The notes under the pieces are model-generated. The model saw nothing but the letters and a program-made list of their open reading frames with translations, was not told the origin of the DNA and made no database searches. Shown piece after piece: positions 6,000 to 53,621 of a DNA stretch of 64,000 nucleotides. The stretch's first letter is position 1. Each line of letters begins with the position of its first letter. Origin of the DNA: Candidatus Woesearchaeota archaeon (lineage in GTDB: Archaea; Nanobdellota; Nanobdellia; Pacearchaeales; GW2011-AR1); contig CAZHOH010000002.1 in the NCBI GenBank assembly GCA_964534185.1, forward strand, positions 10,558-74,557, read 5' to 3'. Made by a program: the position numbers and the translations under genes.

Positions 6000-7148
6000 T
6001 CACTCGCGGCCGAAGGTCCATTTCGCCACCCGAATCGCCTCTGGATCCCCCGTCTCCTTGCCTGGCTCATCACTCAATTTTACCACCGGAATGCCGTTCA
6101 CCGAGCGCAGCTTCATCACGATGCTGAGCGGGATGCAGTCGTCGAAGTCGTTGGTCAGGTGGGTTCCGATGCCGAACGACACCTTGAATGTGTCCTTGTA
6201 AGCCTCCTGCAGGGCGATGGCCTTGTCGATGGTCAGGCCGTCGCTGAAGATGATGGTCTTCCCCCGGGGGTCGACCCGCTGTTTCTCGTAGTGCTCGATC
6301 GCGGCCTGCGCGAACTCGAAGGGGTCTCCCGAGTCATGCCTTACCCCGTCGTACGCCCTGCTCAGTTCCATGTCGAAGTCCTCCCAGAACGCCTTGGTTC
6401 CGAATGTGTCGGTCAGGGCAATTCCGAGGCTCGCCTGGTAAACGCGCATCCACTGCCGGAGCGCGTAGCGATTGGCGTGACGCAGGGACTCAAGCGCGCT
6501 GACCCCCATTACCCACTCGTGCGCCATGGTTCCGATGGGCTTGAGCCCCATCGACCTGGCGAAGGAGACGTTGCTGGTCCCTGCCAGCGTCCCGAACGAC
6601 TTCAATTCTCCCAGCACGGCCGAATGCGCCATGTGGCACCGGCGCCGACGGGTCCCGAAATCGGCGTAGCTGGCTCCCGCGAGCTCCATCCGCTGCCCCT
6701 TGGCGCGAGCCTTCCTCACCGCCTCCTTGACGAGGTCCTCGTCCCGGCCGTCCCATGCCAGGTTATGACAGGCCTCGCACACGAGGGCAAGCAGGGGAAC
6801 CTCCCAGAGGATAGCGCGGCACCATGGCCCCCGGACGACGATCTGCAGGTCGCCGTCGTGGACCACCTCCACCTCCCGGGGGTCGAAGCGGTAGTTGCGC
6901 AGGTACTCGACGTACTGCGGCTTGAAGAACGGGATCGACCGGAGGTAGTCGGCCTCGGCGTCCGTCATCTTGAACTTCCCGACCGTGCCCGTGACCATGC
7001 GCTCAACCTCGCCTGCCACCCCCGGGGGGAGGGGAGCGGTGCCGCGGTTGTGGAACCGGTATTCCACCTGCGCGTCCGGGTAGAGTTCCAGGACGGCCTG
7101 CTGCATGGTGAACTTGTACAGGTCGTTGTCCAGAATGCCAGTGCTCAT
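6000..7148 (-). CDS. pncB: nicotinate phosphoribosyltransferase
   Basis: Colinear with E. coli PncB as I recall it (DNDLYKFTMQQAV, WEVPLLA, FGTRRR, GTSN, GTMAHEW, GIALTDT, RHDSGDP, SFGIGT, KLSDEPGK). Start reset to ATG 7148 (MSTGIL), which has a GAGGGGG RBS. Confidence 0.93.
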   Translation of the reverse strand: MSTGILDNDLYKFTMQQAVLELYPDAQVEYRFHNRGTAPLPPGVAGEVERMVTGTVGKFKMTDAEADYLRSIPFFKPQYVEYLRNYRFDPREVEVVHDGDLQIVVRGPWCRAILWEVPLLALVCEACHNLAWDGRDEDLVKEAVRKARAKGQRMELAGASYADFGTRRRRCHMAHSAVLGELKSFGTLAGTSNVSFARSMGLKPIGTMAHEWVMGVSALESLRHANRYALRQWMRVYQASLGIALTDTFGTKAFWEDFDMELSRAYDGVRHDSGDPFEFAQAAIEHYEKQRVDPRGKTIIFSDGLTIDKAIALQEAYKDTFKVSFGIGTHLTNDFDDCIPLSIVMKLRSVNGIPVVKLSDEPGKETGDPEAIRVAKWTFGRE

Positions 7149-7310
7149 GCCTGCCCCCTCGTTCCTTGTTTGTTTCCTGCTACGGGCATCCCTGAGGTCG
7201 CCGCCTGATAAACCTGTTTCCTCTCCAGACCGCGCGGACCCGGTCAACGCAGGATGACGCGGATCTCGTGATTTCCTGGGCTTCACGATTTCCGCAACTG
7301 TTTACCTGTT

Positions 7311-8363
7311 CTACGAGTCTCCTCCCGCCACTTCGAAGATGCGGTCGATTACTCTCTGCTTGAGTCCTTCCCACAAAGGCCCTTCCCCAACGGGGGCCGC
7401 AATGCCGAGTGGAGCGCTGGCGCCTCCCTGTCCCATCTTGCCCCCGGAGTGCTTCTTGCCGAAGATGCGCTTTGCGAAGTCGTCGACGTCGATCGACTTG
7501 TTCTGGCTACGGATGCTGGCCTGCAGATTTTCCCCGACGACGGAGAATATGATTGAGGTCTCGACTCCTTCCAGCCTTATCATCTTGTCCGCGATGACAG
7601 GCAGGCAGTCTCGCTTGGCCGCGGCGATGATCCCGACGGTGCCCACGAACGTGGAGTCGCGCTGCTCCCAGTTCCCGTCCTTGTTTATCTCCTTCTCAAG
7701 CTCGAAGAAGTATCGCGGGTAGGGGTACCTCTCTATCTGACTGAGTTTGGCCCGGTCAATGAAGGCGCTCAGTTCCCTGGACGCCTCCCAGTCCCTGTCA
7801 GTGCAGGTGTCAGAGGTAAGGTCCTGCGTGTCGCTGCGGATGCCAAAGAAAAGGGCGGTGGCGACCCTGGGGTCCAAGCTACTGGCGCTGGCGCTGGCGC
7901 CATCAGGCGTCTCATCCCCTTCTTCCTCGCGCCGGATATGCCCGACTACCCCCTTGATCATCTCCCAGACGAGGGTGCTGGCCGAGCCAACCTGATCTAT
8001 GATCGATATGCAATCCTTCTCCGACTCCTCAGACCTGTGATGGTCAATGACGAGTATGGGGTGGCCCTTCGGCTTGGAGTTAGCCGTCGTCGCGTCGACT
8101 ATGACACATCCCTGATAGTTGTCGTTGTCATCCGAGTCCTTTATCATCCCGACGTCGAGCGTGTTCAGCATGGTCTTGTTCTGCGGATGGGATATCTCGC
8201 CCGTATACAAGATCCTCGCCTTCCTGTCGAACGAGAAGGAAAGCAGCCACTGCATCCCCATGGCCGCGCCGATGGCGTCGGGGTCCGGGGTTCCATGGGT
8301 GACGATAGCAACCGGAGAGTCATCAAGCGACCTCAATCTGTCCTTGATCGCTTTTACGTCCAT
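7311..8363 (-). CDS. DHH/DHHA1 phosphoesterase (NrnA-like oligoribonuclease / pAp phosphatase family)
   Basis: DPDAIGAAMG (motif I), LVIDHHRS (DHH) and C-terminal GGKMGQGGA (DHHA1-like Gly motif). Confidence 0.8.
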   Translation of the reverse strand: MDVKAIKDRLRSLDDSPVAIVTHGTPDPDAIGAAMGMQWLLSFSFDRKARILYTGEISHPQNKTMLNTLDVGMIKDSDDNDNYQGCVIVDATTANSKPKGHPILVIDHHRSEESEKDCISIIDQVGSASTLVWEMIKGVVGHIRREEEGDETPDGASASASSLDPRVATALFFGIRSDTQDLTSDTCTDRDWEASRELSAFIDRAKLSQIERYPYPRYFFELEKEINKDGNWEQRDSTFVGTVGIIAAAKRDCLPVIADKMIRLEGVETSIIFSVVGENLQASIRSQNKSIDVDDFAKRIFGKKHSGGKMGQGGASAPLGIAAPVGEGPLWEGLKQRVIDRIFEVAGGDS

Positions 8364-8420
8364 GCCTGCCTCGCTTCCCTTTAACTGCTGACACCCTGGG
8401 GCAATTCGTCAGGCTACGAC

Positions 8421-9995
8421 CTAGGTCTCGAACTCGACAAGGTAACGCAAAACGTTCTGGTCTTCTTGATAAACGATCCACTCGTTGTTCATCACATGGC
8501 TGTAATTCGCCTTGCCAAACACGCTGTGGCAACCCCCCGGGGGGGAGGTATACCCGCGCGGGCCTGGAGCCAGGAAGGGTTTCCCGAGGACGACGTCGCC
8601 GAGGAACATGAAGGCCTTGCGGCCTCGCACTGCGCCGCGCCCTCCGGACCAGAACGAGTTCTGTAGGCTACAGTATCCCGCGGCCTTCTTCCAGTCGTCG
8701 GCCCAGTACGTTCCAGGTCCGAACATGGCTCCTGTGATGGCTACGCCCACCAGCTTCTTCGGCATCATCAGGCTCTTGGACAAGATTCCGCTGACATTGA
8801 CGGAGCGGGTGCCGTGGAACAGCAGGGCGGTTCTGGAGTCCCTATGGGCCGAGAGCGTCCCGTTCAGGTCGGGTCGCGAGCGAGGCGAGAACATAGGCTT
8901 CTCCCGGGAACTGGGCTTCTGCGCGGCAATCTGCGCCTGCTTGGCGTCGAACCGATGGCGGCAGGTCGGCTTGTTCGCCTCCCAGATGTTATGGACCTTC
9001 ATTTGCCCAAGTCCCCTGTGGAGGTTTCGCGTCGCCCGGGGCAGGAAGTCCATGATCCACTTGCCTTCCCCCCGGGGGTCAAGCCAGCGCATCTCGAGGT
9101 CTATCCCATCCAGGGGATTGCGGGTCATGTCGTCGATGTCCTCGAGGCTGGTGGACAAGGCTTGCTCGAACGCGTCAAGGTCCTGTTGCCATGTCAGGAT
9201 GTTCTTTTGCGACAGAACCCACGTGGACTCGTCCGCGCCGACGGGCTTGACCTTCGGGATGCGCGAGTAGAGCAGCCGACTGAATTCTCTCAGCCGCTTG
9301 TCCTTGACCTGACGGTCAGGGTCGTCGCCTACTTTCGACAGCCGCTTCAGGGCCTCCGTGAGGATGTGCCTACCTTCGTTGATGGCATCCTGGGTAGGGA
9401 TGCTGTCGTCCGCCATCGAGTTGCGCGTGTAGTTGGCGGTCGCTACGTTTAGGTCGTGCATCAACTGCATGACCTTCGGATCCGGCAGGGAGTCCGCGCG
9501 CCTCGCCTTGCTCGACTTCTTGGTTTTCTTGGCGGGAGCGTCTCCCGTCTGAATCTTCTTCGCCCCGGGCAATCCGGTCGACCTGGTTGCCTGCGGGCGG
9601 ACGAGGTAGCAGTCCTTGCCCTTTTTTGCCCGCAGGGCCTGTATCCCGGAGATCTTCGTCCATTCTCCGCGCTTGTCATTCTTGCTGTGCAGTTGCTTCT
9701 CGTATGCCTTCCGCGCCTCGTCCTCGCACATGGCCATGACGAACTGGAAGTCCGGACGGGAAGCGCCGGTGCGGCCCCACTCGAAATAGGCGTACCATTC
9801 CCCCGTCTGCTTGGATCTGACGACGGCCCCGTGGTAGAACTTGTTGGTGTCCCGTCCGTCCTGGGTGAAACATCCCAGGTCAGCGACCCCAGTGTCCTCG
9901 AACTCCCCATCCTTGACCGCAGGAGGGCCAAAGCACTCGAAGTCATCGGGGCCATGGCAAGCAGGAAACTGACGTTTTGGTAGTTTGGTAGCCAT
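8421..9995 (-). CDS. poly(ADP-ribose) polymerase-like protein (WGR + helical + PARP catalytic domains)
   Basis: WGR: KFYHGAVV...WYAYFEWGRTGASRP. Catalytic H-Y-E: LLFHGTRS, GPGTYWADD, NNEWIVYQEDQ. Confidence 0.85.
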   Translation of the reverse strand: MATKLPKRQFPACHGPDDFECFGPPAVKDGEFEDTGVADLGCFTQDGRDTNKFYHGAVVRSKQTGEWYAYFEWGRTGASRPDFQFVMAMCEDEARKAYEKQLHSKNDKRGEWTKISGIQALRAKKGKDCYLVRPQATRSTGLPGAKKIQTGDAPAKKTKKSSKARRADSLPDPKVMQLMHDLNVATANYTRNSMADDSIPTQDAINEGRHILTEALKRLSKVGDDPDRQVKDKRLREFSRLLYSRIPKVKPVGADESTWVLSQKNILTWQQDLDAFEQALSTSLEDIDDMTRNPLDGIDLEMRWLDPRGEGKWIMDFLPRATRNLHRGLGQMKVHNIWEANKPTCRHRFDAKQAQIAAQKPSSREKPMFSPRSRPDLNGTLSAHRDSRTALLFHGTRSVNVSGILSKSLMMPKKLVGVAITGAMFGPGTYWADDWKKAAGYCSLQNSFWSGGRGAVRGRKAFMFLGDVVLGKPFLAPGPRGYTSPPGGCHSVFGKANYSHVMNNEWIVYQEDQNVLRYLVEFET

Positions 9996-10019
9996 TTCTT
10001 TCGTCTTCTTTTCCCAGGG

Positions 10020-10907
10020 TTACAATAGCCTGCTTCCTGTGAACTGCCAGTCCGTGAACAACTTCCCGTCCGGGAAGAAGATCAATTGCCGGATGACGTT
10101 CGTATCCGGCTCCAGCGTCAGGCAGTTCGACACACAGACGTTTTGTCCCCGGAAGTCATAGACAGCGGCGCCGTGGGGCAGTGTGTAGAGCTTGGTCCCC
10201 TCCGTCTGAACATGCTCTTGAATAGCCAGACACGCGAGATCGCTGAGGCGATTCAAGTCGATCCACTTGTTGACCAACGGACTAGTGGTTGTCGCGTCCC
10301 ACGCGGGTGTCACGGGCCTCCATGTCAGTTGCTCGACTTTGTTCTCCAAGCAGAAGTCCACGAGGCGCTCGAAGGCCTTCGGGCCATCAACGCCCCCCTT
10401 GATGCCGATCGTGGTATACCTTACGATCAGGCCCGCGTCATGGGCGCGCTTGATGGCGTCCTTCATGTCAAGGAGCTTCTTCCTCTTTGGCCAGTAGATC
10501 CTGTGGTTGAGGTCGGGATCCGATCCGACGTTGGATATCATGATGGTAGTCATGCCCGCGCTGTACCAGTCGACAAGCATGTGCCCAACCCGATATCCTC
10601 TCCAAGTGGATTCCCCGAGGAACGCGCCGTTCGTTTGTAGTTCGACGAACGGGAATCGACCCTCGAGTTCCGCCAAGTAGGTGTATATCTGATTCGGATA
10701 GAGGGTAGGCTCCCCTTTCCCCGTTATGAGGACATTGGTGATGCCGCATCTCTCGGCTATCTGCACCGCCTTGCGCAGGTTCCGTATGTTCAATTCGATC
10801 AGAACATCGCAGCCTTTGTTCGTCTCCGTCATGCGCGACACGCAAAACGGGCACTGCGCGTTGCAGGCCTTGGTCCCCGCGACAAGCGACATCGTCTGAA
10901 ATTTCAT
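10020..10907 (-). CDS. radical SAM enzyme, unknown substrate
   Basis: CNAQCPFC (CxxxCxxC) at residues ~15-22 and ITGKGEPTLYP (SAM-binding GGE-like). AAGGAG RBS. Confidence 0.8.
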   Translation of the reverse strand: MKFQTMSLVAGTKACNAQCPFCVSRMTETNKGCDVLIELNIRNLRKAVQIAERCGITNVLITGKGEPTLYPNQIYTYLAELEGRFPFVELQTNGAFLGESTWRGYRVGHMLVDWYSAGMTTIMISNVGSDPDLNHRIYWPKRKKLLDMKDAIKRAHDAGLIVRYTTIGIKGGVDGPKAFERLVDFCLENKVEQLTWRPVTPAWDATTTSPLVNKWIDLNRLSDLACLAIQEHVQTEGTKLYTLPHGAAVYDFRGQNVCVSNCLTLEPDTNVIRQLIFFPDGKLFTDWQFTGSRLL

Positions 10908-11000
10908 CTGACATTCTCCTTATGTTCAATCGTCGGATGGCGCGGACCCTGTACCCCCCCTACTCCGATCGACGGATACGTCTTCTTGTCCCCTCACGTT

Positions 11001-11195
11001 TTACGGGTCTGCCGCGTGGAGTTCGACGGGGGAAAGCGATTCGAGAGACACTGCCCCAGCCTTCCCGCGGAGCCACGCCACCTCGCCCCCCGACAACAGG
11101 TGGCCTATGTATCGAACCTCGTAGACATTATCGTCGTGCGGACCGCCGATGATCGGGTGGTAACGTACCTTCTGACCTACACGGCATTCTGACAT
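11001..11195 (-). CDS. small hypothetical protein (64 aa)
   Basis: ORF 11001..11207. ATG at 11195 (MSECRVGQKVRYHP). Overlaps the 3' end of the upstream gene by ~68 nt. Confidence 0.4.
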   Translation of the reverse strand: MSECRVGQKVRYHPIIGGPHDDNVYEVRYIGHLLSGGEVAWLRGKAGAVSLESLSPVELHAADP

Positions 11196-11883
11196 TTTCA
11201 CCCCCATGGTCTTTGGCCAAGTCGGAAACCTCTTTGGTGCGAGCGTCTTCTTTTCCTAGTTCCTGCTCGCAATAACGCGCGACCTTGACGATCCGTCTGG
11301 CAACGAAGTTCTTAAGCCAACTCCTCGTTGCAGGCAGCGCGTCTAGGTGGCCCATGACTTTGTTCGCATATTCCTGGCCTCCGATCAATACGATTGCGAC
11401 GGCGGCGTTAGCAACAATGGCACTGAAATACGGGATGTCAAGCAGCAGGTCGTTGGCATGAGATGCAAACACCTGAAAAAGAGTTTCCTCCAGGTTCGCA
11501 TGAATATTGTCGGGGATAACGGTTGCCTTTCTCGCGACCATCTTGGTCGCCTCGCATACCAGAGCCTGGTTTTTCATGCTCATGAAACGAGCGATCACGT
11601 CACAGTCCAATGAACTACGGGAAGCCATCGCAATGAAGAGCCTGACGCCTGCGGAGGTAAAAACATTCATGTATTCGTTGTCGCGATGCTTTTCCACGAA
11701 ACTCACGACAGCATCCCTGAGCGGCTTCTCGCCGCGAGTCCACAAAGGAGCAAATGAATACATGTTGGCTAGGAACACCCCCTCGGCAGATAGAACCGCC
11801 CTGCCCTCCAAAGAGGGGTCAGTCATCTTGCCGTCAACAAACTGCTCGATTTCCCGCATCATCCGCTCGATTTTATCCGACAT
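11128..11883 (-). CDS. hypothetical helical protein (251 aa)
   Basis: ORF track entry in the co-directional block. No motif recognised. Confidence 0.6.
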   Translation of the reverse strand: MSDKIERMMREIEQFVDGKMTDPSLEGRAVLSAEGVFLANMYSFAPLWTRGEKPLRDAVVSFVEKHRDNEYMNVFTSAGVRLFIAMASRSSLDCDVIARFMSMKNQALVCEATKMVARKATVIPDNIHANLEETLFQVFASHANDLLLDIPYFSAIVANAAVAIVLIGGQEYANKVMGHLDALPATRSWLKNFVARRIVKVARYCEQELGKEDARTKEVSDLAKDHGGENVRMPCRSEGTLPPDHRRSARR

Positions 11884-11921
11884 CGTTATCTAGCCCCCGC
11901 CGATGAGCCAGAGGTACTCCG

Positions 11922-11953
11922 CTGGCCCCGGAGAGTCGTCGAACCGGGGCCAG
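11922..11953 (-). promoter_or_regulatory. perfect 10-bp-stem hairpin CTGGCCCCGG-N12-CCGGGGCCAG just downstream of the ParB-like gene
   Basis: Read directly: ctggccccgg agagtcgtcgaa ccggggccag. No U-tract, so it is not a canonical intrinsic terminator. Confidence 0.4.
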
Positions 11954-11963
11954 CGGGACGTTG

Positions 11964-12851
11964 CTACTTGGCGGAAGCCAAATCTGCGGCCGGCTTGCGG
12001 ACACGAAACATGCTTTCGTCGAACACCCGCGGGAAAGCCTCGCTCGTGGCGTAGCGGATCTGCTTCATGGGCTGCTCATTGGCCCAGGCGTTCATGGCCT
12101 TGACAAACAGCGCCAGCACGTAGTCTCGGAAGCCGCTGCCGTTGTGCCCCAGGCCCCTGTTGAGCCGAAGGATGGAACGGCGCAGTGCCAGCGACGGGCT
12201 GTCGGTCTCGAGGTTCACCCCCGTGGCCACCTCCTCGATGAAGGCGTCAGCTAGTTCCTCATCGTCCAGCGCGCGCATCAGGACGTACTTGCAGAACGCA
12301 GCCTGCGCGAGGCACCCCCCGATCTCGCGAAGGTATTTGCCGGCGGGCAGGCGGACTGCGTCCCGGGCCTTCGGATGGCGCTCGAGCACGCTCATGATGT
12401 CGACGTTGCCCGCGCGGTTGCGGGCGATGTTCTGCGACGATCGGTTCTCGTAGCGCCAGATGTACTTCAGCAGCGCGGCCAGCGCGGTGGAGTTCGCCTC
12501 GCCCCGTATCTGCATGATGTGGGCCGCGGTCCTGCCCATGCCGCAGTCGATGGTGGCCTGCGCGTTGTCGTCCGTCACGCCGCGAACGACGATGGTCTCG
12601 ATGCTCTGGCCTGACTCGATGATCGCTTGCAGACGGTGCTGGCCGTCGATCAGATGCCCCTCCTCGTCAAAGGTGATAGTCTGGCCGTTGAAAGACCACT
12701 GGTTCATACGCATCTGATCCGCGTAGAACTCGATGCGCCTCCGGGAAAGCTTGCGGTTCGCCTCCTGCGTTTCCAGCCACCGCTTGGCCTTGCGAGGTCC
12801 GACCTTCTCCCGGTTCGACTTGATGTACGTCCTTTTCTTGCTTTTGCCCAT
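11964..12851 (-). CDS. ParB/Srx-fold N-terminal domain protein (DGQHR motif)
   Basis: EEGHLIDGQHRLQAI is the ParB-like nuclease/Srx core motif. Start reset to ATG 12851 (MGKSKKRTY) with an AGGAGA RBS. Confidence 0.75.
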   Translation of the reverse strand: MGKSKKRTYIKSNREKVGPRKAKRWLETQEANRKLSRRRIEFYADQMRMNQWSFNGQTITFDEEGHLIDGQHRLQAIIESGQSIETIVVRGVTDDNAQATIDCGMGRTAAHIMQIRGEANSTALAALLKYIWRYENRSSQNIARNRAGNVDIMSVLERHPKARDAVRLPAGKYLREIGGCLAQAAFCKYVLMRALDDEELADAFIEEVATGVNLETDSPSLALRRSILRLNRGLGHNGSGFRDYVLALFVKAMNAWANEQPMKQIRYATSEAFPRVFDESMFRVRKPAADLASAK

Positions 12852-12914
12852 CTTCAGTCTCCTGTTTTCAAAAAGAAAAATACTATGCCCCAAGCGGGTT
12901 CCTCGAATGCGTCT

Positions 12915-12943
12915 ATAATACACAAAATGCGGCGCACGCACAA
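12915..12943 (-). promoter_or_regulatory. candidate sigma-70-type promoter of the ParB-like gene
   Basis: Minus strand: TTGTGC (12943-12938), 17 nt spacer, TATTAT (12920-12915), ~65 nt upstream of the ATG. Confidence 0.3.
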
Positions 12944-12954
12944 GCGTCGGCAAA

Positions 12955-12988
12955 GAGGCCCCGGAGCAACCGGGGCCTCTTTGCCTTA
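12955..12988. terminator. hairpin AAGAGGCCCCGG-AGCAA-CCGGGGCCTCTT, terminator-like on both strands
   Basis: Perfect inverted repeat read directly. It is followed on the plus strand by tgccttattttt, and it lies between two minus-strand genes. Confidence 0.4.
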
Positions 12989-13026
12989 TTTTTCAAACTC
13001 CTCAACGATAGCACCACCGCTATCGC

Positions 13027-13230
13027 TCAATGCTCGTTCTTCCGTTTCTCAAAGTAGCCCATCTCATCCGCCAGCGCCCCAATATAGCGCCCGTCCGCGT
13101 CAAAGCAGAAATGCGTCTGCGCCACGGAAATGCCATGGTCTCCACGGTACACGCCATATTCGTTTCGCCATTCCTCAAGCCCTACTCCCATGCAGGTGAA
13201 GAAGGCAACGAATTCCTCGTAGTCCGTCAT
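13027..13230 (-). CDS. small hypothetical protein (67 aa)
   Basis: ORF 13027..13308. ATG at 13230 (MTDYEEF) avoids overlap with the vWA gene. Confidence 0.45.
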   Translation of the reverse strand: MTDYEEFVAFFTCMGVGLEEWRNEYGVYRGDHGISVAQTHFCFDADGRYIGALADEMGYFEKRKNEH

Positions 13231-13304
13231 CGCTATGCTCCCGATGCAACTCACAGTGGCCACCGTAGTGGAAAGCGGGTCACGCTGCCTCCACAGGGAG
13301 TGCC

Positions 13305-14096
13305 TCAACTACCGAACCCCCCCATGGCCGTCTGGCTGAAACTGGCGCCGCCCTGGGACGCGCGTACCGCGCTCTGGCTGAAGACCTGGAAGGCCTTCCT
13401 GACTTCGGTCTCGCTGTTGCCAGGGGTCAGGATCCACTCGTCCTGGACGCCCATCTGCTGGAAGATGCGCTTGAAGTCGGCCCCCGCGTCGTCCTTGATC
13501 CCCATGGCGGCAATGATGTGGCACTCCTGCCGCAACATGTCCTCGACCAAGGGCTTGACGTCCAAGGCGCTGGATGAGGAGTGCTGGTCCGCTCCGTCGG
13601 TAACGATCAGGGTGATCGTCCGGGCCGGCACTCCAGAGTCCGCGAACTCGCGGTGCTTGGCCATGACCGTGCCCAGCAGGGCGATGGTCTGGTCGTACAG
13701 CGGCGTCCCCTTACGCGGGTCGTAGTTCTGCGGCGTCATGACCTCGGCGTCCTCCAGCTTCCGGTAGGGGAACAGCACGTCCCCGTTGAGATAGCGGGTG
13801 TGCGCCAGAACGGCGTCCGTCTGCTTCGATTTCTTCAGCGCATCCAGAACCAGGTTGTGCCCATCGATGACCGCCTGCTTGTTGCCTGCGAACTGGATCG
13901 ACCCGCTGTCGTCCGGCATCATCGTCACCAGAACGACCTCGCTGGCCTCCACGTCGTCGGCGGAGATGCCCAGACCGGCCTGAATCTGTGCCCCCAGGTC
14001 AATGGAGTTCAGGGCCTGCATCGACTGCAGGCTCAGATCCCCCTCGTCATGGGCTTGCTTGAATACCTCGCCCAAGTCTGCCACGTTGCTGCTCAT
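13305..14096 (-). CDS. von Willebrand factor A (TerY-like) protein
   Basis: MIDAS residues: MPDDSGSIQF (DxSxS) and LIVTDGADQHS. Start reset to ATG 14096 (MSSNVADLG) with a GAGGAG RBS. Confidence 0.85.
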   Translation of the reverse strand: MSSNVADLGEVFKQAHDEGDLSLQSMQALNSIDLGAQIQAGLGISADDVEASEVVLVTMMPDDSGSIQFAGNKQAVIDGHNLVLDALKKSKQTDAVLAHTRYLNGDVLFPYRKLEDAEVMTPQNYDPRKGTPLYDQTIALLGTVMAKHREFADSGVPARTITLIVTDGADQHSSSSALDVKPLVEDMLRQECHIIAAMGIKDDAGADFKRIFQQMGVQDEWILTPGNSETEVRKAFQVFSQSAVRASQGGASFSQTAMGGFGS

Positions 14097-14224
14097 GATC
14101 GTCTCCTCGTTCGATGAACCCCTCCCCCAACAAACTCCGCTGGAACGGCTCGACACAAAAACAGTAAGCGTTGGCACGTTCGATTGGAGTCCGGGGGAGG
14201 GGCTCGTATGTCGGTCAGCCTTAG

Positions 14225-15292
14225 CTACAGGCTGATGCCATCCCATTCCTCGATGGGCTTGGTGGATCTGACGACATGCATGCCAGCGTCCTTGAATTTC
14301 TGGATCGCCGCTACGGCGTCGTCGGTAAAGTCCGCCACGAACCCTCCCTGGCCGTCAGGGATCGCGACCGAGCTCATGCAGTCCTCCATGATGTAGCACT
14401 TGCGCGCCAGGGACTCGTCCTGCGCGCGGATCTCGCTCAGCAGGTCGTCGATCGTGAACTTGACGCAGTGGCTCGCGGCCTGCCCCGCGATGATGACGGC
14501 GTCGCTGTCCAGCAGCGTGTTCAGAAACCGGGTGTTCTTCTGGCCCACCGGCTTGTGGTCCTGGGTTGCCAGAACCTCCGGGCGCAGGACGGAATAGTTC
14601 TCCGTCAGCAGGGCGCCCCCCTTGACCTCCAGATCCCCCTTGGAGGACCGGGCGAAGGAATGGAAAGCCCGCGCCTCGGCGACTGTTCCCGCGAGCGCGT
14701 GTCCCTCAGAGCCGAGCAGGCAGTGGAAGGGCCAGAGGTAGAGCTGGTACTTGCCAGCCTTCTCCAGCTCCTGGCAGTAGTGCTTGACGTAGCTGACCAG
14801 CCACGTGTAGTTGCCGTTGCACAGCCACTTCGCCATGGCGGGGTTGGGATTCAGCTTGCCTTCCGAGATGTCCTGGGTGGAGACGGTCGTGTGCGCGGCC
14901 GGGGCCTTGCCGTCCTCGCCGACCCAGAAGCTCGGGAAGAATACCTGGAACGGGAAGTGAGTGTCCATCGTGCAGGTCACGTCGGTGATGGCGGGGAGGT
15001 TCTTGTAGATGAACTCCGCTGTCCGCGCGGAGTCCTCGATCGCGCCGCGTCCGCCGCGGCCACCTACGTAGAGCGTCCCCTCGGGGAAGCAGAAGTCCTT
15101 CTGGGCGTCGATCAGCAGCAGGTGGACGCGGAATTTGTCGGCGCCGGACGGAGCCACGCCATGCTTCTTAACCCACTCCTGCGCCTTCTCGAACAACATG
15201 GCCTCGTTCGGGCGGTAGCCCCACTTCTCGGCGGACTTCGGGTCGTAGAAGTCAGGCAGGGGCAGTTGCTTGACTGGCGTCGCGGTGCTCAT
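14225..15292 (-). CDS. isochorismatase-family cysteine hydrolase, nicotinamidase-like
   Basis: LLLIDAQKDFCFPEG (catalytic Asp region), MDTH (possible metal site) and IIAGQAASHCVKFT (nucleophile Cys). Start reset to ATG 15292 with an AAGGAGAA RBS. Confidence 0.75.
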   Translation of the reverse strand: MSTATPVKQLPLPDFYDPKSAEKWGYRPNEAMLFEKAQEWVKKHGVAPSGADKFRVHLLLIDAQKDFCFPEGTLYVGGRGGRGAIEDSARTAEFIYKNLPAITDVTCTMDTHFPFQVFFPSFWVGEDGKAPAAHTTVSTQDISEGKLNPNPAMAKWLCNGNYTWLVSYVKHYCQELEKAGKYQLYLWPFHCLLGSEGHALAGTVAEARAFHSFARSSKGDLEVKGGALLTENYSVLRPEVLATQDHKPVGQKNTRFLNTLLDSDAVIIAGQAASHCVKFTIDDLLSEIRAQDESLARKCYIMEDCMSSVAIPDGQGGFVADFTDDAVAAIQKFKDAGMHVVRSTKPIEEWDGISL

Positions 15293-15303
15293 CTTCTTCT
15301 CCT

Positions 15304-17148
15304 TCACTTCAAACTCAGGACGCCAACCTCCTGGCGCCCGGTGACGTACACGCCATTCTTCCCAGCGAAGAGATGGCAACCTTCATTCACGAACGGCTCC
15401 GTGTCGGGGAACTCCTTTTCCACCTCCAGTAAGCCGCCGTTGTTCCTGATCCGCCTCAAGCCCTCGTCAGAGGCGCTTAGCAGCATCTTGTCAAACGCCC
15501 ACTTTCCCCTGATTCCGGATAGCCAGGGATGGTCGGCCTGGTCGGTCTGCTCCGTCGCCAGAACCTCGCCGTGGCGACTGACCACGTGGCATTCGTTGAC
15601 CTTCCTCTTGCCCTGCTGCGTGCTCACGAAGAACCAGCAGCAATGATCCCCGAAAAAGCAGGTCGAGTCTATCAGTTGGCCGCGAACCTTGACGTTGACG
15701 GAGTCGTTGATCTTTCCGTTGACGTCGAATACGAAGGCCACGCTCAACTGGCCGGCGCGATAGAAGCCCAGGCCGAACTCCGGGCCCACCCAGAAGAGGG
15801 TCTGGTTCCTCAGCACGTCGCCTATCCTCTTGTATCCCAGTATATCATCACGATAGAGTACACCGTCCTGCAACCAGAACTTATCGCGCCCGTTGGCGTC
15901 GAATATGGGCAGGTTGCCGTAGAAGTCGACCGGCAACTGCTCCAACTTGCCATCCTTGTCCACGACCAGCGCCGGCTTCCCGGACATGCCAATGAGAGTC
16001 TGATTCCCGCAGATGCGAAAGCGCATCTGGTGATGCGCGGACCCCTTGAGGACCTTTACTCCCCCTTCTCTCCAAAAATGTCCGTCTTCCCAATAGAGCC
16101 ACCTCATCTGGCCATCCTGCATGGCGGCGAACAGGATGGTTCCCTTCGTGGAGAATATCTTCTTGTATTCCACGTTGCCCTTGACGACCTCCTTAACGAG
16201 CGGAACGACCTTCTGGCACTCCGGGCAGGACTTTCTCGCGTGCTCGAAGCCGCAGCCCGGGCAGACGCGCCACTGCGTGTTCAGCAACTGCAGCGGGAAC
16301 GGACCCCGCGTGTCCTTCTCGAACACCTGGCGTAAGTAGTCCGCCAGGTCGTCCGGCAGGGACTTGAGGGGCCGCGCGGGCTTCGGGTACTTGACCTCCG
16401 AGTCAAATACCGTGATCCGGTGCAGGGGCCGCGCCGGGTGGGGCACCTTGCGCTTCTTGTCCTTGGGACGAAAAACCCCCCCGTATGGGTCAACGAACAT
16501 CAGGGTCTGCATGACCATGACCGCGAAGGCGTACCAGTCGGAGTCCTCGTTGTGGGGCCTGACCAGGACGGGCCTGTTCTGGCGCGCGTCGCACAGCAGG
16601 GGATCCACGAATCGCTCCGTGTAGACACGGCAGGGAAACGTCCTGAACTGCCAACTGTCAGCGTCGATGACGTAGGGCGTATCGCCTTTGACGAGGACGT
16701 TGAGGTCGTTGAAGTCACCAACCACCGCGTCCTTCTCGTGGATCGCCTCGACCACCTGGGCCAGTTTCTTCAGAATCCTGTTGACGACATTGTTGTTGAC
16801 GCCATGCCGGAAGGACTTCTCTCCATAGCGGAGCAGAGGCTCTGCCCCCTCGACCATGTCCATCACGTAGCCAACGATCTTTCCTTTCCTGTCGGTCGCA
16901 ACGTCCAGCGGGACGATGACGTTCGACGGCACCCCCCGGGGGAACTGGGTCAACTTCTGCTGGTGCTCCTCTATGCGAATCCTCGCGGCCTGGCGCTGGT
17001 CGACGGTCAGGTGGTCGGGATGGTTCTCTCCCTTGAAGACTTTGAGCGCGTGACCACCGGGGATCCGGTAGACGTCAGCTTCGCCGCCTTTGCCTATGCT
17101 ATCGGTAGGAGCAACGCTTATGCGCTTGCTTCTGACGTAGACTTGCAT
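15304..17148 (-). CDS. Ser/Thr protein kinase with zinc ribbon and C-terminal repeat domain
   Basis: GKGGEADVY...ALKVFK (Gly loop plus Lys), VVGDFNDLNVLV (catalytic loop), VIDADSW (DFG-like) and CPGCGFEHARKSCPECQK. About 270 aa of beta-rich C-terminus. Confidence 0.85.
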   Translation of the reverse strand: MQVYVRSKRISVAPTDSIGKGGEADVYRIPGGHALKVFKGENHPDHLTVDQRQAARIRIEEHQQKLTQFPRGVPSNVIVPLDVATDRKGKIVGYVMDMVEGAEPLLRYGEKSFRHGVNNNVVNRILKKLAQVVEAIHEKDAVVGDFNDLNVLVKGDTPYVIDADSWQFRTFPCRVYTERFVDPLLCDARQNRPVLVRPHNEDSDWYAFAVMVMQTLMFVDPYGGVFRPKDKKRKVPHPARPLHRITVFDSEVKYPKPARPLKSLPDDLADYLRQVFEKDTRGPFPLQLLNTQWRVCPGCGFEHARKSCPECQKVVPLVKEVVKGNVEYKKIFSTKGTILFAAMQDGQMRWLYWEDGHFWREGGVKVLKGSAHHQMRFRICGNQTLIGMSGKPALVVDKDGKLEQLPVDFYGNLPIFDANGRDKFWLQDGVLYRDDILGYKRIGDVLRNQTLFWVGPEFGLGFYRAGQLSVAFVFDVNGKINDSVNVKVRGQLIDSTCFFGDHCCWFFVSTQQGKRKVNECHVVSRHGEVLATEQTDQADHPWLSGIRGKWAFDKMLLSASDEGLRRIRNNGGLLEVEKEFPDTEPFVNEGCHLFAGKNGVYVTGRQEVGVLSLK

Positions 17149-17942
17149 CTTCTCACCACCACTAGCGTCGTGTCGTCCGGCAGCAGGCCCTTCTGCTCTT
17201 CCAGAAGACGGTTCTCGTAATCCACCTTGCGCGAGTTCCTGTTGATCAGGCGCAGCCGTCGAGAGACGGCGAAGGAGTTCCTGAAGTAGCGGTCATCAGC
17301 CCAGAACTGGGAGAGAGCGCCAACCTCCTCGCTCTTCCCCGGGAGTCTCCGGCGCCTGAGTTCCGGGATGTTATCAACCCCGTCGGTCCCGACAAGAATG
17401 GACTCGATGTCCGCCGTCTTCCACTCCCAACGATCGAAGGCGCTCCTGTCCCGCTGGTCCGGGTTCGTAACCGCGTATCCGATATAGGACGGCGCGTTGT
17501 TCTGGTCGATGGAATGAACGACGAGTCCCTCCGACAAGGTGCAGCGGTTAATCAGGCCGTCCCCGCACGACAGCACGGTTGTCTTCTCGTCGTCCATGAC
17601 CAGGACGATGGAGGTAAAGAGGAAGAAATCTGAGACGGCACTCGAGAGGCTGTCACTGACCCATTCCGAGACCACGGACAACTTCGAGGCCACCTCCATG
17701 CGCAGCCTCTCCTGGTCGACGCGGCCCAGCCTCCTTTTCTGCGCCCATGCCGACATCACGAGCATGCGGGCCCCGAGCAGCGCGCCTGCCTCGCTATACC
17801 TCCCGCTGCCGCAGCCGTCGCACACGGCCGCGACAATTAGGTTGTCGTCGGTCTTCCAGAAGTAGGAGTCTTGGTTGTTCCGGCCGGCCATCTCGTGATC
17901 GCGGCCCCTGACGCTCCCACCGGCAATTTGGAATCCGTTCAC
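17118..17942 (-). CDS. PP2C-family protein phosphatase
   Basis: RGRDHEMAGRNNQDSY, AAVCDGCGSG, VGTDGV. GTG start. 31-nt overlap with the kinase start. Confidence 0.85.
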   Translation of the reverse strand: MNGFQIAGGSVRGRDHEMAGRNNQDSYFWKTDDNLIVAAVCDGCGSGRYSEAGALLGARMLVMSAWAQKRRLGRVDQERLRMEVASKLSVVSEWVSDSLSSAVSDFFLFTSIVLVMDDEKTTVLSCGDGLINRCTLSEGLVVHSIDQNNAPSYIGYAVTNPDQRDRSAFDRWEWKTADIESILVGTDGVDNIPELRRRRLPGKSEEVGALSQFWADDRYFRNSFAVSRRLRLINRNSRKVDYENRLLEEQKGLLPDDTTLVVVRRCKSTSEASA

Positions 17943-20722: not shown

Positions 20723-20822
20723 GGTCCGCGCGCCTTGGAAAGTTACTTGGGTCCGCGCCGGAGCACGGCGGCGTGACACTAAGTAAAAAAGACAGACTTT
20801 TGTCTTGACCAAGGAGCGCGCT

Positions 20823-21467
20823 ATGAGTAACCTGACTTTCCGCTACCCCGACGACCCCGCACGGATGCCGGCGGACCAACTCCCCAGACTGGAGAGAATG
20901 AGTCCGGGTCTATGGTGGGGGTTTACAAAGGGTGACGGATGGCGACGGCCTGCCTACTGCGAAGGGAGTGGAGTCTGGACGTTCCACTCGAAGCGCGGTG
21001 ACGGAATCGAGGCCCGCAAGTCCCCTCCCAAGGGGCTAGTCGAACTTTTCTCCGCGATGGATTGGCCTGAAGGTATCGCCATCGACATGGAGTGGATGGG
21101 GCCCCGGCTACGGGAACATTTCCCAACCGAAGACGACCACGAGTTCTGGATCTTCGACATGACCTACTGCGCGTGGAAATGGCAGGGAAAGACACCCTTT
21201 GCAAAAAGGTGGGTGCACCTGTCAGAAATCTTCCACGACGCGGCCCGCGGCAAACCCGAGAACTTCCCCCGGGTGAGGCTGCTGGCGCCCTACAAGGAGA
21301 ACCTGGCGCAGGCGTTCGAGCAGGAACAAGCAAACCCCCTGTCCGAGGGCCTGGTTCTGCGGCACGTCCGAGGGCACCTCGTTGGCGACCTCAACGGACC
21401 CAGGAAGAATCCGGGCGCCATGAAGAAAGTAAAGTACCGGAACGCGAAAGAGAAGACTGCATTCTAA
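20823..21467 (+). CDS. minimal ATP-dependent polynucleotide ligase (nucleotidyltransferase domain only)
   Basis: FTKGDGWR (motif I KxDGxR), WIFDM (III), EGLVLRH (IV), MKKVKY (V). Start reset to ATG 20823 with an AAGGAG RBS. At 214 aa there is no room for an OB domain. Confidence 0.65.
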   Translation: MSNLTFRYPDDPARMPADQLPRLERMSPGLWWGFTKGDGWRRPAYCEGSGVWTFHSKRGDGIEARKSPPKGLVELFSAMDWPEGIAIDMEWMGPRLREHFPTEDDHEFWIFDMTYCAWKWQGKTPFAKRWVHLSEIFHDAARGKPENFPRVRLLAPYKENLAQAFEQEQANPLSEGLVLRHVRGHLVGDLNGPRKNPGAMKKVKYRNAKEKTAF

Positions 21468-37177: not shown

Positions 37178-38134
37178 CTATTCCTGGGTCTCCCCCTTGT
37201 AGAGAGACGTGCCGAAGGAGTGCAGGTAGTCGGTGAATACAGACGTCGGGTCAGGATCGCTCCTGATGAGACGGGAGGTATACTCGCTCCTCGAGTCAAT
37301 CATGTCTATGTAGTGCAGGGTCATCGCCTCGGTCGTCGCGGGGGCCACGGGCGACCCCCACTCGAGCTTGCCGTGGTGGCTCAGGATCATGTGCAGGACT
37401 AGCATCCTCAACTCCTGCGGGAACCCGTCGATGCCAGAGATGGCCTTGTCCACGTAGTTCGCCCCTAGGAATATGTGCCCGAGCATCACCACCGGGGGGG
37501 TTATCTCACGATCCAGGTAGTCCTTGTAGTTCCATACCTTGCCAATGTCATGCAGCATCGCCCCCGCGACCAGGATGTCCTTGTCCAGCCTCGGGTTGGA
37601 CTCGCAGAACGACGCCGCGGCGCGGGCCATCATGCAGGAGTGTTCCAGCAGACCCCCGCGGAAGCAGTGGTGGTTGTTGCGGGCGGCCGGGAGCTGGCTG
37701 AACTTCTGCCACAGTGGCAGCGACTCGAACACCTTCTTCAGGAGGGCCTTGAGGTGCTCGTTGCTAACCTCGTCGATGTAGTCGAGGAACTCGGTTCCAA
37801 GAGCGTCCAGGTCGAAGGAAGACGACATCACGATGTCATTCATGTCGTACTCGGACTCCTCCGCGGGCCGCGCGTCCTTGATGGTCAAGCTGTTGATGTT
37901 CTTGTAGACGTCGACGTGCCCAGTCATCCGCACGACGGTTCCGACGGGGAAGTTGCTTTTCAGGGTCTCCTGCGCCGCGTCCCACATCCGGCCCTCGATC
38001 TGGCCCGTCTTGTCGACGAGCGTGGCCTGGATGTATTTCGACTGGTTCTTGGCCTTTCGCACGCGCGCCTGTGAGACGTAGAAGCAAGAATCGAATGCCT
38101 CCCCGCCGACGAGATCCTTGATCAATGTCTTCAT
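37178..38134 (-). CDS. yhaM: 3'-5' exoribonuclease YhaM-like (OB fold + HD domain)
   Basis: N-terminal OB pattern (ATLVDKTGQIEGRMWD). HD domain: HHCFRGGLLEHS, MLHDIGK, LSHHGKLEWGSP. Start at ATG 38134 after GAGGGAG. Confidence 0.8.
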   Translation of the reverse strand: MKTLIKDLVGGEAFDSCFYVSQARVRKAKNQSKYIQATLVDKTGQIEGRMWDAAQETLKSNFPVGTVVRMTGHVDVYKNINSLTIKDARPAEESEYDMNDIVMSSSFDLDALGTEFLDYIDEVSNEHLKALLKKVFESLPLWQKFSQLPAARNNHHCFRGGLLEHSCMMARAAASFCESNPRLDKDILVAGAMLHDIGKVWNYKDYLDREITPPVVMLGHIFLGANYVDKAISGIDGFPQELRMLVLHMILSHHGKLEWGSPVAPATTEAMTLHYIDMIDSRSEYTSRLIRSDPDPTSVFTDYLHSFGTSLYKGETQE

Positions 38135-41130: not shown

Positions 41131-43065
41131 CTAAAGCATCGCCTCGAACTCGTTCATTCCTATGATCTGTACGCCCAACTCGCGGGCCTTCTGAGCCTTG
41201 CTTTTCGTGCTGGACGTATCCTTGAGGACGAGGTAACTGAGTCCCTTGCTCACGCTCTTCTTTTCCTTGCCTCCCGCCGCTTCCAGACGTTGCCTCTGAT
41301 CAGGATCCATTCGTACCCCAGAGAAGCAGAAGGTCTTCCCGTACAACTTGCCGTCGGACACCTCCTTCTTGAGCGGGGTCACCTTGATTATCCTGACCAG
41401 CCTCTCTATTAGATCCTTGCGGGACTGGATCGACTCTGTAACCTCCTTGGCCGGCTCCTCGCCGAACGTTCCCTTCTCGCTGAATGGCTTTCCGACGAGA
41501 TCCTTGGGTGCGAGGCCAAGATATTCCTCGACGGTATCGATGCCGATAAGGCGAGCGCGAGACCTGCCGAGCATCTTGATGGACAGCGATCCCATGAACA
41601 TGTCGATCGGGAGTTCTCGCGTCTTGTCAATCTCTGACACGATCTTCTTGGCGTTGCTGCCGATGACCCCGTTGCCCACCGGGCACTTCGACACGCTGGC
41701 CTCGTCGAGCGAGTAAAGGTCATCTATGTCCTTGACCAGACTCGCCTCGACCAGGGACCTGAGCGCCGTGGAGCCAAGTTGCTTGATGTCTAGCTTGTCA
41801 ACCCAGTTCCTGATCCTCTGGAAGTAGAGGTCTGGGCAGGTGGGGTCGGTCACCAGCAGGCGCTTGCCCTCCCAGGACAGGTCGTATTCCTTGCCATCGG
41901 AGGCCTTCCATGCCCCCGGGGGAGGAAAGGGGCCGGCCGTGTTCTTCTTGGCCACCCTCGTTATGTGCGGGATGATGTCCCCTCCCTTCTCCACCTCGAC
42001 GACGTCTCCGACGTTGATGTTCTTCTCGCTGACGTACTTGAAGTTGTTCAGCAAGCAGTGCGTAACGGTCGTCCCCGCTAGCCTCACAGGCTCGAACACG
42101 GCGGTGGGTATGATCGCCCCCGTTTGGCCGATGGTAAGCTCTATCGAGAGGATCTTGGACTCGGCCTTCTCCGTCTCGAACTTCCAAGCCACCTGCCCCC
42201 GGGGGCGGCTCCCCCCGTCGCTGTACCCCATGGATTCCTGCTTCTCGAGGTCCTCGACCGCGACGACCATGCCGTCGATCTCGAACTCGAGTTCGACGCG
42301 GGAGTCCTCGTATCGCTTGCGGCACTTGACGAGGTCGTCCCAGGTCCGGCAACGGAACCACCGGATCGTCTCGAAGCCCATGGACTCGAGCGCCTTGAAC
42401 TTGTGGCTCTGCTTCTTGAACGCAACCTCGGGGTGAACCAGGTCGAACGCCCGGAACGTGATGTGCTTGTTCGCGCTGGGGTCGCTCTTCGCCACGATGA
42501 CGCCGTTGCCGCCGTTGCGGGGGTTTTCCTTGTCTGGGAGATGCTCCCTCCACGCGCTGACGGACAACTGGGCCTCACCCCGGACGATGACCTGAGCCTT
42601 GACGTCGATCTTCTCCGGCAACCCCTCCCACATGCGGGCGTTGCGGGTGATGTCCATGCCGATCTTGCCGTCGCCGCGGGTGGCAACGCGCCAGAGGCTG
42701 CCCCCGCGATAGACCGCCTCGGCGCTGGAGCCGTCAGCCTTGTCCGACACGATGACCTCGGGCTTGCCGGCCTTCTCGAACCATGCCAGGATGCCGGCCT
42801 CGTCCTTGGCCTTGTTCTGGCTTCCCATGTGCATCAGAAGCCTGACCTCGTCCCGATGCCCGGAGACAGGGGCGCCGACCTCGCTGAAGAACGAGTGCCC
42901 CGGGGCCGCGCGCCGGAGCTCGTCGCGAAGCGCGTCGAACTCCGCGTCGGTCATCAGGGTCATGCCCGTATTGTAATAGGCCTCGCTGGCCGCCCTCAAG
43001 TCGGCAGCGATCTCGTCAGGGGACCTCCTGTCGCCTGGCCCAAAGTTGATTGCTGGATCTTTCAT
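41131..43065 (-). CDS. ligA: NAD-dependent DNA ligase
   Basis: EAYYNTG...TDAEFDAL (Ia), SDKADGSS (KxDG), OB, Zn/HhH region, and C-terminal BRCT (GKTFCFSGV...LSYLVLKD). Start reset to ATG 43065. Confidence 0.92.
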   Translation of the reverse strand: MKDPAINFGPGDRRSPDEIAADLRAASEAYYNTGMTLMTDAEFDALRDELRRAAPGHSFFSEVGAPVSGHRDEVRLLMHMGSQNKAKDEAGILAWFEKAGKPEVIVSDKADGSSAEAVYRGGSLWRVATRGDGKIGMDITRNARMWEGLPEKIDVKAQVIVRGEAQLSVSAWREHLPDKENPRNGGNGVIVAKSDPSANKHITFRAFDLVHPEVAFKKQSHKFKALESMGFETIRWFRCRTWDDLVKCRKRYEDSRVELEFEIDGMVVAVEDLEKQESMGYSDGGSRPRGQVAWKFETEKAESKILSIELTIGQTGAIIPTAVFEPVRLAGTTVTHCLLNNFKYVSEKNINVGDVVEVEKGGDIIPHITRVAKKNTAGPFPPPGAWKASDGKEYDLSWEGKRLLVTDPTCPDLYFQRIRNWVDKLDIKQLGSTALRSLVEASLVKDIDDLYSLDEASVSKCPVGNGVIGSNAKKIVSEIDKTRELPIDMFMGSLSIKMLGRSRARLIGIDTVEEYLGLAPKDLVGKPFSEKGTFGEEPAKEVTESIQSRKDLIERLVRIIKVTPLKKEVSDGKLYGKTFCFSGVRMDPDQRQRLEAAGGKEKKSVSKGLSYLVLKDTSSTKSKAQKARELGVQIIGMNEFEAML

Positions 43066-53563: not shown

Positions 53564-53621
53564 CACGGATCCTCGCTAGATCGCCTAAAGGAAGGATATC
53601 CGCACGCGGCGTCCGTTGCAA

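Follow-up and report, generated by a model that had tools for sequence, protein, structure and literature searches.

Enzymes that consume and salvage nicotinamide adenine dinucleotide (NAD) are encoded close together in a 64,000-nucleotide stretch of DNA, hereafter the window, from an assembly deposited as Candidatus Woesearchaeota archaeon (GCA_964534185.1, contig CAZHOH010000002.1, forward-strand positions 10,558 to 74,557). On the minus strand of the window lie genes for a nicotinate phosphoribosyltransferase (PncB), an ADP-ribosyltransferase with a WGR domain (WGR-PARP), a nicotinamidase-like cysteine hydrolase, and the NAD-dependent DNA ligase LigA, all at the coordinates given in an earlier reading of the same DNA, which we call the original prediction (Table 1). 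The hydrolase is the third gene of a co-directional cassette that spans positions 13305 to 17942 and also encodes a PP2C-type phosphatase, a kinase-fold protein with a zinc ribbon, and a von Willebrand factor A (vWA) domain protein. This cassette, read as a regulated nicotinamidase, is a more valuable lead than the proximity of PARP and PncB.

The enzyme identities proposed for PncB, PARP, and LigA are borne out. PncB is a bona fide member of the TIGR01514/PRK05321 family, as it passes the curated NCBIfam equivalog cut-off (TIGR01514, 415.9 bits against 269.55) as well as that of NF003704 (453.3 bits against 379), and it carries both Pfam domains of the family. Among phage records, the nearest relatives of this protein are the PncBs of huge phages, with 39 to 45% identity to those of LR756501, LR756500, and LR756511. 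The WGR-PARP exceeds the Pfam cut-offs for both of its domains (PARP, 74.9 bits against 26.7; WGR, 28.4 bits against 22). Alignment to human PARP1 shows that its H-Y-E triad is intact, with the His in LLFHGTR, the Tyr in GTYWAD, and the Glu in NNEWIVY, which we take to correspond to H862, Y896, and E988 of the human enzyme. The window PARP is 53% identical over its full length to the protein of LR756511 and is about equally similar (52 to 59%) to metagenomic, bacterial, and huge-phage relatives. These relatives number about 800 and come from bacterial chromosomes and huge-phage contigs, with one family member on a contig of 716,784 bp, and a scan of IMG/VR with a single PARP sequence returned no match. 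LigA, the second NAD consumer, has the adenylation, OB, and BRCT domains expected of it.

With these assignments, the chemical logic put forward originally also holds, in that nicotinamide released by PARP would be converted to nicotinate by the amidase and then to nicotinate mononucleotide (NaMN) by PncB. The enzymes that would carry NaMN to NAD had been placed outside the window, and a Pfam search of nearly all open reading frames (ORFs) of at least ~110 amino acids found neither NadD nor NadE within it, nor any NMNAT, NadR, Nampt, PnuC, macro, or PARG domain.

Table 1. Genes and features of the NAD-related region and LigA, in window coordinates
Feature	Coordinates	Strand	Evidence
pncB, nicotinate phosphoribosyltransferase, E. 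coli-type, 382 aa	6000..7148	-	NCBIfam TIGR01514, Pfam NAPRTase_N + NAPRTase
DHH-family phosphoesterase, NrnA-like	7311..8363	-	Pfam DHH, 41.7 bits
WGR-PARP, ADP-ribosyltransferase, 524 aa	8421..9995	-	Pfam PARP + WGR, H-Y-E triad
Radical SAM enzyme	10020..10907	-	Pfam Radical_SAM, 41.9 bits
G+C-rich hairpin, 16-bp stem	12949..12985		Possible transcription-unit boundary
vWA-domain protein, cassette gene 4, 263 aa	13305..14096	-	MIDAS motif, AF2/Foldseek
Nicotinamidase-like cysteine hydrolase, cassette gene 3, 355 aa	14225..15292	-	Invariant PncA residues, AF2/Foldseek
Kinase-fold enzyme with zinc ribbon, cassette gene 2, 614 aa	15304..17148	-	Invariant kinase motifs, CxxC...CxxC
PP2C-type phosphatase, cassette gene 1, 274 aa	17118..17942	-	Pfam PP2C_2, 63 bits (cut-off 24)
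LigA, NAD-dependent DNA ligase	41131..43065	-	Pfam DNA_ligase_aden, DNA_ligase_OB, BRCT

The hydrolase as a probable nicotinamidase

The hydrolase had been called nicotinamidase-like, a designation that fits it well: taken alone it falls below threshold in profile searches, yet it keeps the catalytic and metal-binding residues of PncA, and the best structural matches to its predicted model are nicotinamidases. It belongs to a large family, with 266 clusters (50% identity) at E <= 1e-30 in an exhaustive search and 4,666 relatives at E <= 0.001 among 8,000 candidates examined, the best 120 of which are 60 to 92% identical to the window protein. The originally proposed start codon fits these relatives, which are ~350 amino acids long, and the 90%-identity cluster of the window protein includes one of 355 amino acids from a contig of 107,729 bp. 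Some close relatives carry a precomputed match to the isochorismatase family PF00857, and annotation of family members as nicotinamidase comes from several sources.

The family has six invariant residues: D62, D110, H112, H190 (within WPxHC), K224, and C276. It was aligned by MAFFT with the PncA proteins of Mycobacterium tuberculosis and Escherichia coli, using sequences that we take to be the reference ones, that of M. tuberculosis being partly corroborated by HMMER output. In this alignment, D62, K224, and C276 match the catalytic triad of M. tuberculosis PncA (D8, K96, and C138), and D110, H112, and H190 match its metal ligands (D49, H51, and H71). A metal site of the form D-x-H...H distinguishes nicotinamidases from other isochorismatase-like cysteine hydrolases. 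Structure-based comparison points in the same direction. A profile of the family searched against the PDB gave five matches, the nicotinamidases 3pl1, 3r2j, 2h0r, and 29iv and the cysteine hydrolase 3irv. The AlphaFold2 (AF2) model of the window protein has a predicted local distance difference test score (pLDDT) of 81.6 and a predicted template modeling score (pTM) of 0.84, and its six best Foldseek matches in the PDB are all nicotinamidases (2wta, 2wt9, 2h0r, 1ilw, 3o93, and 3o91, with target-normalized template modeling scores of ~0.7). Relative to classical PncA, the protein is extended at both ends, by ~55 residues at the N terminus, and has an insert of ~75 residues between the metal ligands.

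From these residues and the predicted fold, we infer that the hydrolase is probably a nicotinamidase that converts nicotinamide to nicotinate. This reading is strengthened by the combination of a complete active site, a nicotinamidase fold, and bacterial orthologs that occur among genes for the NAD regulator NrtR and nicotinate phosphoribosyltransferases (NAPRTases), as described below.

A four-gene cassette shared by bacteria and jumbo phages

The genomic surroundings of the hydrolase were examined at 80 bacterial loci, the best 80 of 388 relatives obtained when a single genome of each species was scanned. Myxococcota account for most of these loci, with complete Cystobacter, Archangium, and Sorangium genomes among them, and the rest include loci from Planctomycetota, Elusimicrobia, and Gemmatimonadota. 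Neighbors were counted by tblastn with the window proteins, and ORF clustering, which antisense ORFs made noisy in these high-G+C loci, was set aside. A homolog of the vWA protein is encoded directly after the hydrolase at 76 of the 80 loci (median identity, 61%), the kinase is nearby at 74 (41%), and the PP2C phosphatase is nearby at 63 (34%). The genes are always co-directional, arranged as PP2C, kinase, hydrolase, and vWA at 57 loci and as hydrolase, vWA, PP2C, and kinase at 6. The same module is present on all five IMG/VR contigs that encode the hydrolase (81 to 266 kb) and on a phage-like contig of 132 kb, and a diverged version (30 to 33% identity) is found in the huge phages LR756511, LR756500, and LR745208. 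The cassette moves as a unit and is shared by bacteria and jumbo phages.

In the kinase protein, GxGG, K36, D145, N150, the DxD at 162 to 164, and the CxxC...CxxC at 296 to 311 are invariant, and a C-terminal region of ~300 amino acids is conserved. Pfam matches of this protein to Pkinase and DZR are weak, and its profile matches in the PDB are to protein kinases only. The vWA protein matched nothing in Pfam or the PDB by sequence or profile search. Its metal ion-dependent adhesion site (MIDAS) is complete and invariant (DxSxS at 62 to 66, T131, and D167), and the top Foldseek matches of its AF2 model (pLDDT, 86.4) are vWA and integrin I domains.

This combination recalls the TerY-P triad, in which, according to the summary in PMC11090510 of work by Anantharaman, Iyer & Aravind (2012), vWA and PP2C phosphatase proteins are combined with a Ser/Thr kinase that carries a zinc ribbon at its C terminus. 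In that summary the triad is associated with restriction, and TerY-P-like modules act as stand-alone defenses. Like the triad so described, the cassette is a mobile unit whose vWA protein has a full MIDAS and whose other products include a PP2C phosphatase and a zinc-ribbon kinase. It differs from that description in the added nicotinamidase, in the ~300-amino-acid C terminus of the kinase, and in a context of NAD metabolism rather than restriction or tellurite resistance.

The metabolic context is apparent in bacteria. A gene for NrtR, with Nudix and NrtR winged-helix domains, lies within 10 kb of the hydrolase at 29 of the 80 loci, in many cases as the gene immediately upstream of PP2C, and a NAPRTase of 479 amino acids is encoded at 13, so that one or both are present at 36. 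At three loci without kinase, phosphatase, or vWA genes, the hydrolase directly follows NAPRTase and NrtR genes, and two further operons read NrtR, NAPRTase-like protein, PP2C, kinase, hydrolase, and vWA in one case and NrtR, PP2C, kinase, hydrolase, and vWA in the other. Control of pncA-pncB and other NAD genes by NrtR is established (Rodionov et al. 2008, PMC2330246), and the presence of NrtR with NAPRTase independently supports a PncA-type role for the hydrolase. This implies that the whole cassette, amidase included, serves NAD or nicotinamide metabolism. Bacterial copies are also found beside housekeeping genes, such as those for ATP synthase, and not in defense islands.

Some members of the hydrolase family (P0245, P0247, P0248, and P0107) reach ~600 amino acids through an additional N-terminal domain of ~250 amino acids, which matches no Pfam family and is found neither in the window nor at the loci examined. 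The operon of P0107 still has the order NrtR, PP2C, kinase, hydrolase, and vWA.

Linkage of PARP, PncB, and the cassette

The original prediction treated PARP, PncB, and the hydrolase as a linked trio. In the window the three genes do lie on one strand within ~10 kb, and that part of the claim stands. The clustering is not conserved in related phages, and the view of the hydrolase as a free-standing partner of PARP and PncB does not hold: it is the third gene of a conserved cassette and has no PARP nearby at any of the 80 bacterial or five viral loci. In a tblastn search of 50,697 phage records, matches to PncB were found in 22 records, to PARP in 9, and to the hydrolase in 4. In two huge phages, LR756511 and LR756500, all three genes are present, spread over 45 to 55 kb and in differing orders. 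Co-occurrence at the level of the genome thus exceeds what the rarity of the genes predicts, and no conserved locus is formed. The tie between PARP, PncB, and the cassette is particular to this genome.

Within the window, two blocks can be told apart. The radical SAM, PARP, DHH, and PncB genes are co-directional and closely spaced, 24, 57, and 162 bp apart. Three further ORFs separate this block from the cassette. One, of 93 amino acids, overlaps the stop codon of the vWA gene, another is ParB-like, and the third encodes a protein of unknown function. The hairpin listed in Table 1 has a perfect stem and lies in a gap of ~175 bp that follows the 93-amino-acid ORF. A T-run is found on its plus-strand side only, and so a function as terminator for the minus-strand genes is uncertain. 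The hairpin overlaps the TTG start mechanically assigned to the ParB-like ORF, the true start of which is probably an ATG near position 12851.

A proposed route of nicotinamide recycling and its alternatives

The explanation we favor, with a probability of roughly 0.55, is that a large phage carries auxiliary NAD genes of three origins, PARP/LigA, the bacterial cassette, and PncB, which recycle nicotinamide toward NAD. PARP and LigA would cleave NAD, the former freeing nicotinamide and the latter nicotinamide mononucleotide. The cassette would have been acquired whole from bacteria, and its amidase would turn nicotinamide into nicotinate, from which PncB, with phosphoribosyl pyrophosphate, would make NaMN. 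NaMN would then be converted to NAD by NadD and NadE, either those of the host or ones encoded beyond the window. Because the window PncB is of the E. coli type and the partner of the cassette in bacteria is a different NAPRTase of 479 amino acids, PncB and the cassette appear to have been assembled by the phage from separate sources. Nicotinamide is a product inhibitor of NAD consumers, as PARP pharmacology and the Pnc1-Sir2 case show, and its removal may also relieve inhibition of PARP during infection. Finally, the kinase, PP2C, and vWA proteins might form a TerY-P-like phospho-switch that gates the amidase by phosphorylation and MIDAS-mediated binding, which is the most tentative step of the scheme.

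Several observations weigh against this explanation. The hydrolase alone is a subthreshold match to the isochorismatase/PncA families (17.2 bits against a Pfam PF00857 cut-off of 27 and 23.4 bits against an NCBIfam PncA NF008623 cut-off of 174), and its ~150 additional residues could shift the substrate away from free nicotinamide. No PADLOC model for TerY-P matches the cassette; the PP2C, vWA, and hydrolase proteins have no match at all, and the kinase matches only PD-T4-6 and MkoA, weakly. At every other locus examined the cassette is without a linked PARP. A window-type PncB is near the hydrolase at 7 of the 80 bacterial loci only (median identity, 27%) and, like PARP, is not found within 10 kb of it on the five IMG/VR contigs. 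In the window itself, the gap with its strong hairpin sets the cassette apart from the PARP-PncB block. Relatives of the PARP have LigA, RuvC, or CRISPR-Cas as neighbors and not NAD salvage genes. Lastly, no capsid, tail, terminase, or tRNA gene was found in the 64-kb window, and the element is designated a phage by its similarity to phage gene families.

Some of these points favor an alternative in which the proximity is incidental, with PARP and LigA forming a DNA-nick sensor for phage repair or replication, PncB a metabolic booster, and the cassette an independent signaling module. Relatives of the PARP are encoded directly beside LigA (locus L100, 10001 to 13998) or RuvC (locus L099 of a Lignipirellula chromosome, 8001 to 10751) and beside neither PncB nor the cassette, which suggests that the PARP's own job is nick sensing and repair. 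The dispersal of the three genes in LR756511 and LR756500 and the five unrelated genes and hairpin-bearing gap between the cassette and PARP in the window fit this view as well. However, genes as rare in phages as these are nevertheless found together in two huge phages and the window, the chemistry joins PARP, amidase, and PncB regardless of gene order, and the PARP, DHH, and PncB genes are co-directional and separated by the two short gaps given above. We regard incidental proximity as a serious but rather unlikely alternative to nicotinamide recycling.

A second alternative is that the cassette is a conflict module of the TerY-P type, with a part in defense, superinfection exclusion, or counter-defense, in which the hydrolase acts on some other amide or NAD-derived signal or, instead of feeding salvage, depletes nicotinamide and so starves a competitor's NAD reconstitution. 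Such a role would accord with the TerY-P architecture of its vWA, PP2C, and zinc-ribbon kinase proteins, with its mobility between bacteria and jumbo phages, and with the large insertions in the hydrolase, which could alter specificity. We consider it improbable, as the weak kinase match is the sole point of contact between the four proteins and PADLOC defense models, and the bacterial context is one of NrtR, NAPRTase, and housekeeping genes instead of defense islands. Moreover, the nicotinamidase-specific metal site is fully conserved, and the hydrolase family is 60 to 65% identical across phyla, unlike fast-evolving defense genes.

Nature of the element

The element is very probably a large phage, with a small residual doubt. 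Matches to phage-only PHROG families are found in the window, including phrog_33734 (E, 1e-80) and phrog_5931 (E, 9e-58), as well as phrog_284, and tblastn with the proteins of the first two families likewise gives matches in the genomes of jumbo and other phages. The window has the gene content usual for a jumbo phage, with a sigma factor, Dcm, Pnkp/RNA ligase, Thg1, and peptide deformylase, and a large share of the ORFs have no Pfam family. Proteins identical to the window PARP and vWA protein occur on a contig of 107,729 bp, which gives the minimum length of the source contig. No phage record matched the 9.4-kb region in a megablast search.

That the window is instead a piece of bacterial chromosome or another nonphage element with ordinary host NAD genes would fit the missing structural and tRNA genes and the frequency of the cassette and of WGR-PARP in bacterial chromosomes such as those of Cystobacter, Sorangium, and Lignipirellula, but this is highly improbable given the strong phage-only matches, the jumbo-phage-like content with its many ORFs outside Pfam, and a PncB nearest, among phage records, to those of huge phages, with the PARP about as similar to huge-phage as to bacterial and metagenomic relatives.

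Relation to known NAD systems

The original prediction presented a PncA/PncB route linked to a PARP as a different solution from the phage pathways already described. This is only partly so. NAD-jumbo phages, reported in Microbiome in 2024 (PMC11662467), have pncB-nadD-nadE clusters together with the NAD consumers LigA and PARP, and a phage-encoded pncA is mentioned. The class is defined by a genome larger than 200 kb that encodes at least one complete NAD synthesis pathway, and the evidence for it is all bioinformatic. The window shares with these phages salvage or Preiss-Handler enzymes plus LigA and PARP, but whereas their pathway is complete by definition, the 64 kb analyzed here show the PncA-like and PncB steps only. 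The general idea of Preiss-Handler genes with NAD consumers in jumbo phages is therefore not new. What PMC11662467 does not describe is a nicotinamidase within a PP2C, kinase, and vWA cassette.

The other point of comparison is the experimentally characterized pathways that overcome NAD-depleting defenses, which consist of Adps and Namat (NARP1), Nampt and Nmnat (NARP2), and PnuC and NadR (NARP3). In these pathways, as proposed for the window, NAD is rebuilt by phage-encoded enzymes from breakdown products or precursors. The window route differs in passing through nicotinate and NaMN and in its need for NadD and NadE. None of the domains of the NARP1, NARP2, or NARP3 enzymes was found by Pfam in any window ORF scanned, and the NARP1/NARP2 preprint mentions neither PncA nor PncB.

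In bacteria, the closest counterpart is salvage pathway I, pncA-pncB under NrtR (PMC2330246), which has in common with the cassette the nicotinamidase, the NAPRTase, and the association with NrtR. Classical PncA is ~180 to 215 amino acids long and stands alone, whereas the cassette hydrolases are ~350 amino acids long and are nearly always accompanied by vWA, kinase, and PP2C genes. A literature search, which did not reach the 2012 paper of Anantharaman and colleagues, found no report of a nicotinamidase linked to vWA, PP2C, and kinase genes or to a TerY-type module in bacteria or phages.

A physiological parallel exists in yeast, where the nicotinamidase Pnc1 clears the nicotinamide that inhibits Sir2 and feeds Preiss-Handler salvage. 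The consumer is a sirtuin in yeast, and here it would be a PARP, in a phage.

NAD depletion is a major strategy of bacteria against phages, and the three counter-routes shown experimentally, NARP1 to NARP3, avoid nicotinate. If our reading is true, a phage nicotinamidase with PncB adds an entry through the Preiss-Handler pathway, so far inferred only from the gene catalogs of jumbo phages. For the bacterial lineages in which the kinase, phosphatase, and vWA genes are tied to a nicotinamidase in NrtR-associated clusters, the arrangement suggests posttranslational control of NAD salvage, and the cassette offers a concrete four-protein system for such control. A more far-reaching proposal, put forward tentatively and with considerable doubt, is that the cassette, hitherto undescribed as a unit, places nicotinamide clearance under a TerY-P-like phospho-switch and is common to jumbo phages and to bacteria of the Myxococcota type, in which NrtR controls it. 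Together with PncB, it might then provide a fourth, Preiss-Handler-based route of NAD rebuilding, or relief of PARP, against NAD-depleting immunity. Any part of the PARP, PncB, and hydrolase genes in counter-defense is pure conjecture.

Neighboring genes and other features of the window

The DHH-family protein encoded between PARP and PncB has NrnA (5j21; E, 5.7e-6) as its best relative of solved structure and might have ADP-ribose-derived or other nucleotide products as substrates. A DHH gene near PncB or PARP was not seen in the other phages examined. We considered, and rejected, a family II pyrophosphatase that would pull the PncB reaction, as the protein scores 53 bits against a cut-off of 283, its best solved relatives are NrnA proteins, and it is absent near PncB and PARP in those other phages. 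The radical SAM gene upstream of PARP encodes a protein with only weak similarity to MoaA and viperin and is not adjacent to PARP in LR756511.

Other neighbors of PARP vary among genomes. In Xanthomonas phage XacN1 (locus L088, 13143 to 15074), PARP is followed immediately by a vWA gene homologous to that of the cassette (hhalign, 96.7%), unlike LR756511, where the PARP and vWA genes are far apart. A 698-amino-acid protein of the phrog_33734 family (window positions 1017 to 3113) is encoded 5 to 10 kb from PARP in the window, in XacN1, and in Xoo-sp13. Another PARP relative, on a contig of 374 kb, lies ~3 kb from a type I-E CRISPR-Cas operon (locus L097, 10001 to 21617).

Genes of the RNA repair type are scattered across the window, at 20805 to 21467 (plus strand), 23356 to 25599 (minus), 37178 to 38146 (minus), 40247 to 40786 (plus), 44386 to 45276 (minus), and 52496 to 53566 (minus). 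The first half of this set comprises an RNA-ligase-like protein, a fusion of Pnkp-like kinase, metallophosphatase, and Rnl1-type RNA ligase, and a protein with HD and OB domains; the second half comprises an Rv2179c-like 3'-5' exoribonuclease, a Thg1-like tRNA-His guanylyltransferase, and an RlaP nucleotidyltransferase. Their presence suggests repair of tRNA or other RNA against host anticodon nucleases.

Toward the end of the window, from about position 57000 to 64000, the G+C content drops from ~60% to 47%. This block holds a sugar-modification cluster, with genes for UDP-GlcNAc 2-epimerase, SASA-type acetylesterase, FkbM methyltransferase, sulfotransferase, DegT aminotransferase, and GNAT proteins, and may have been separately acquired.

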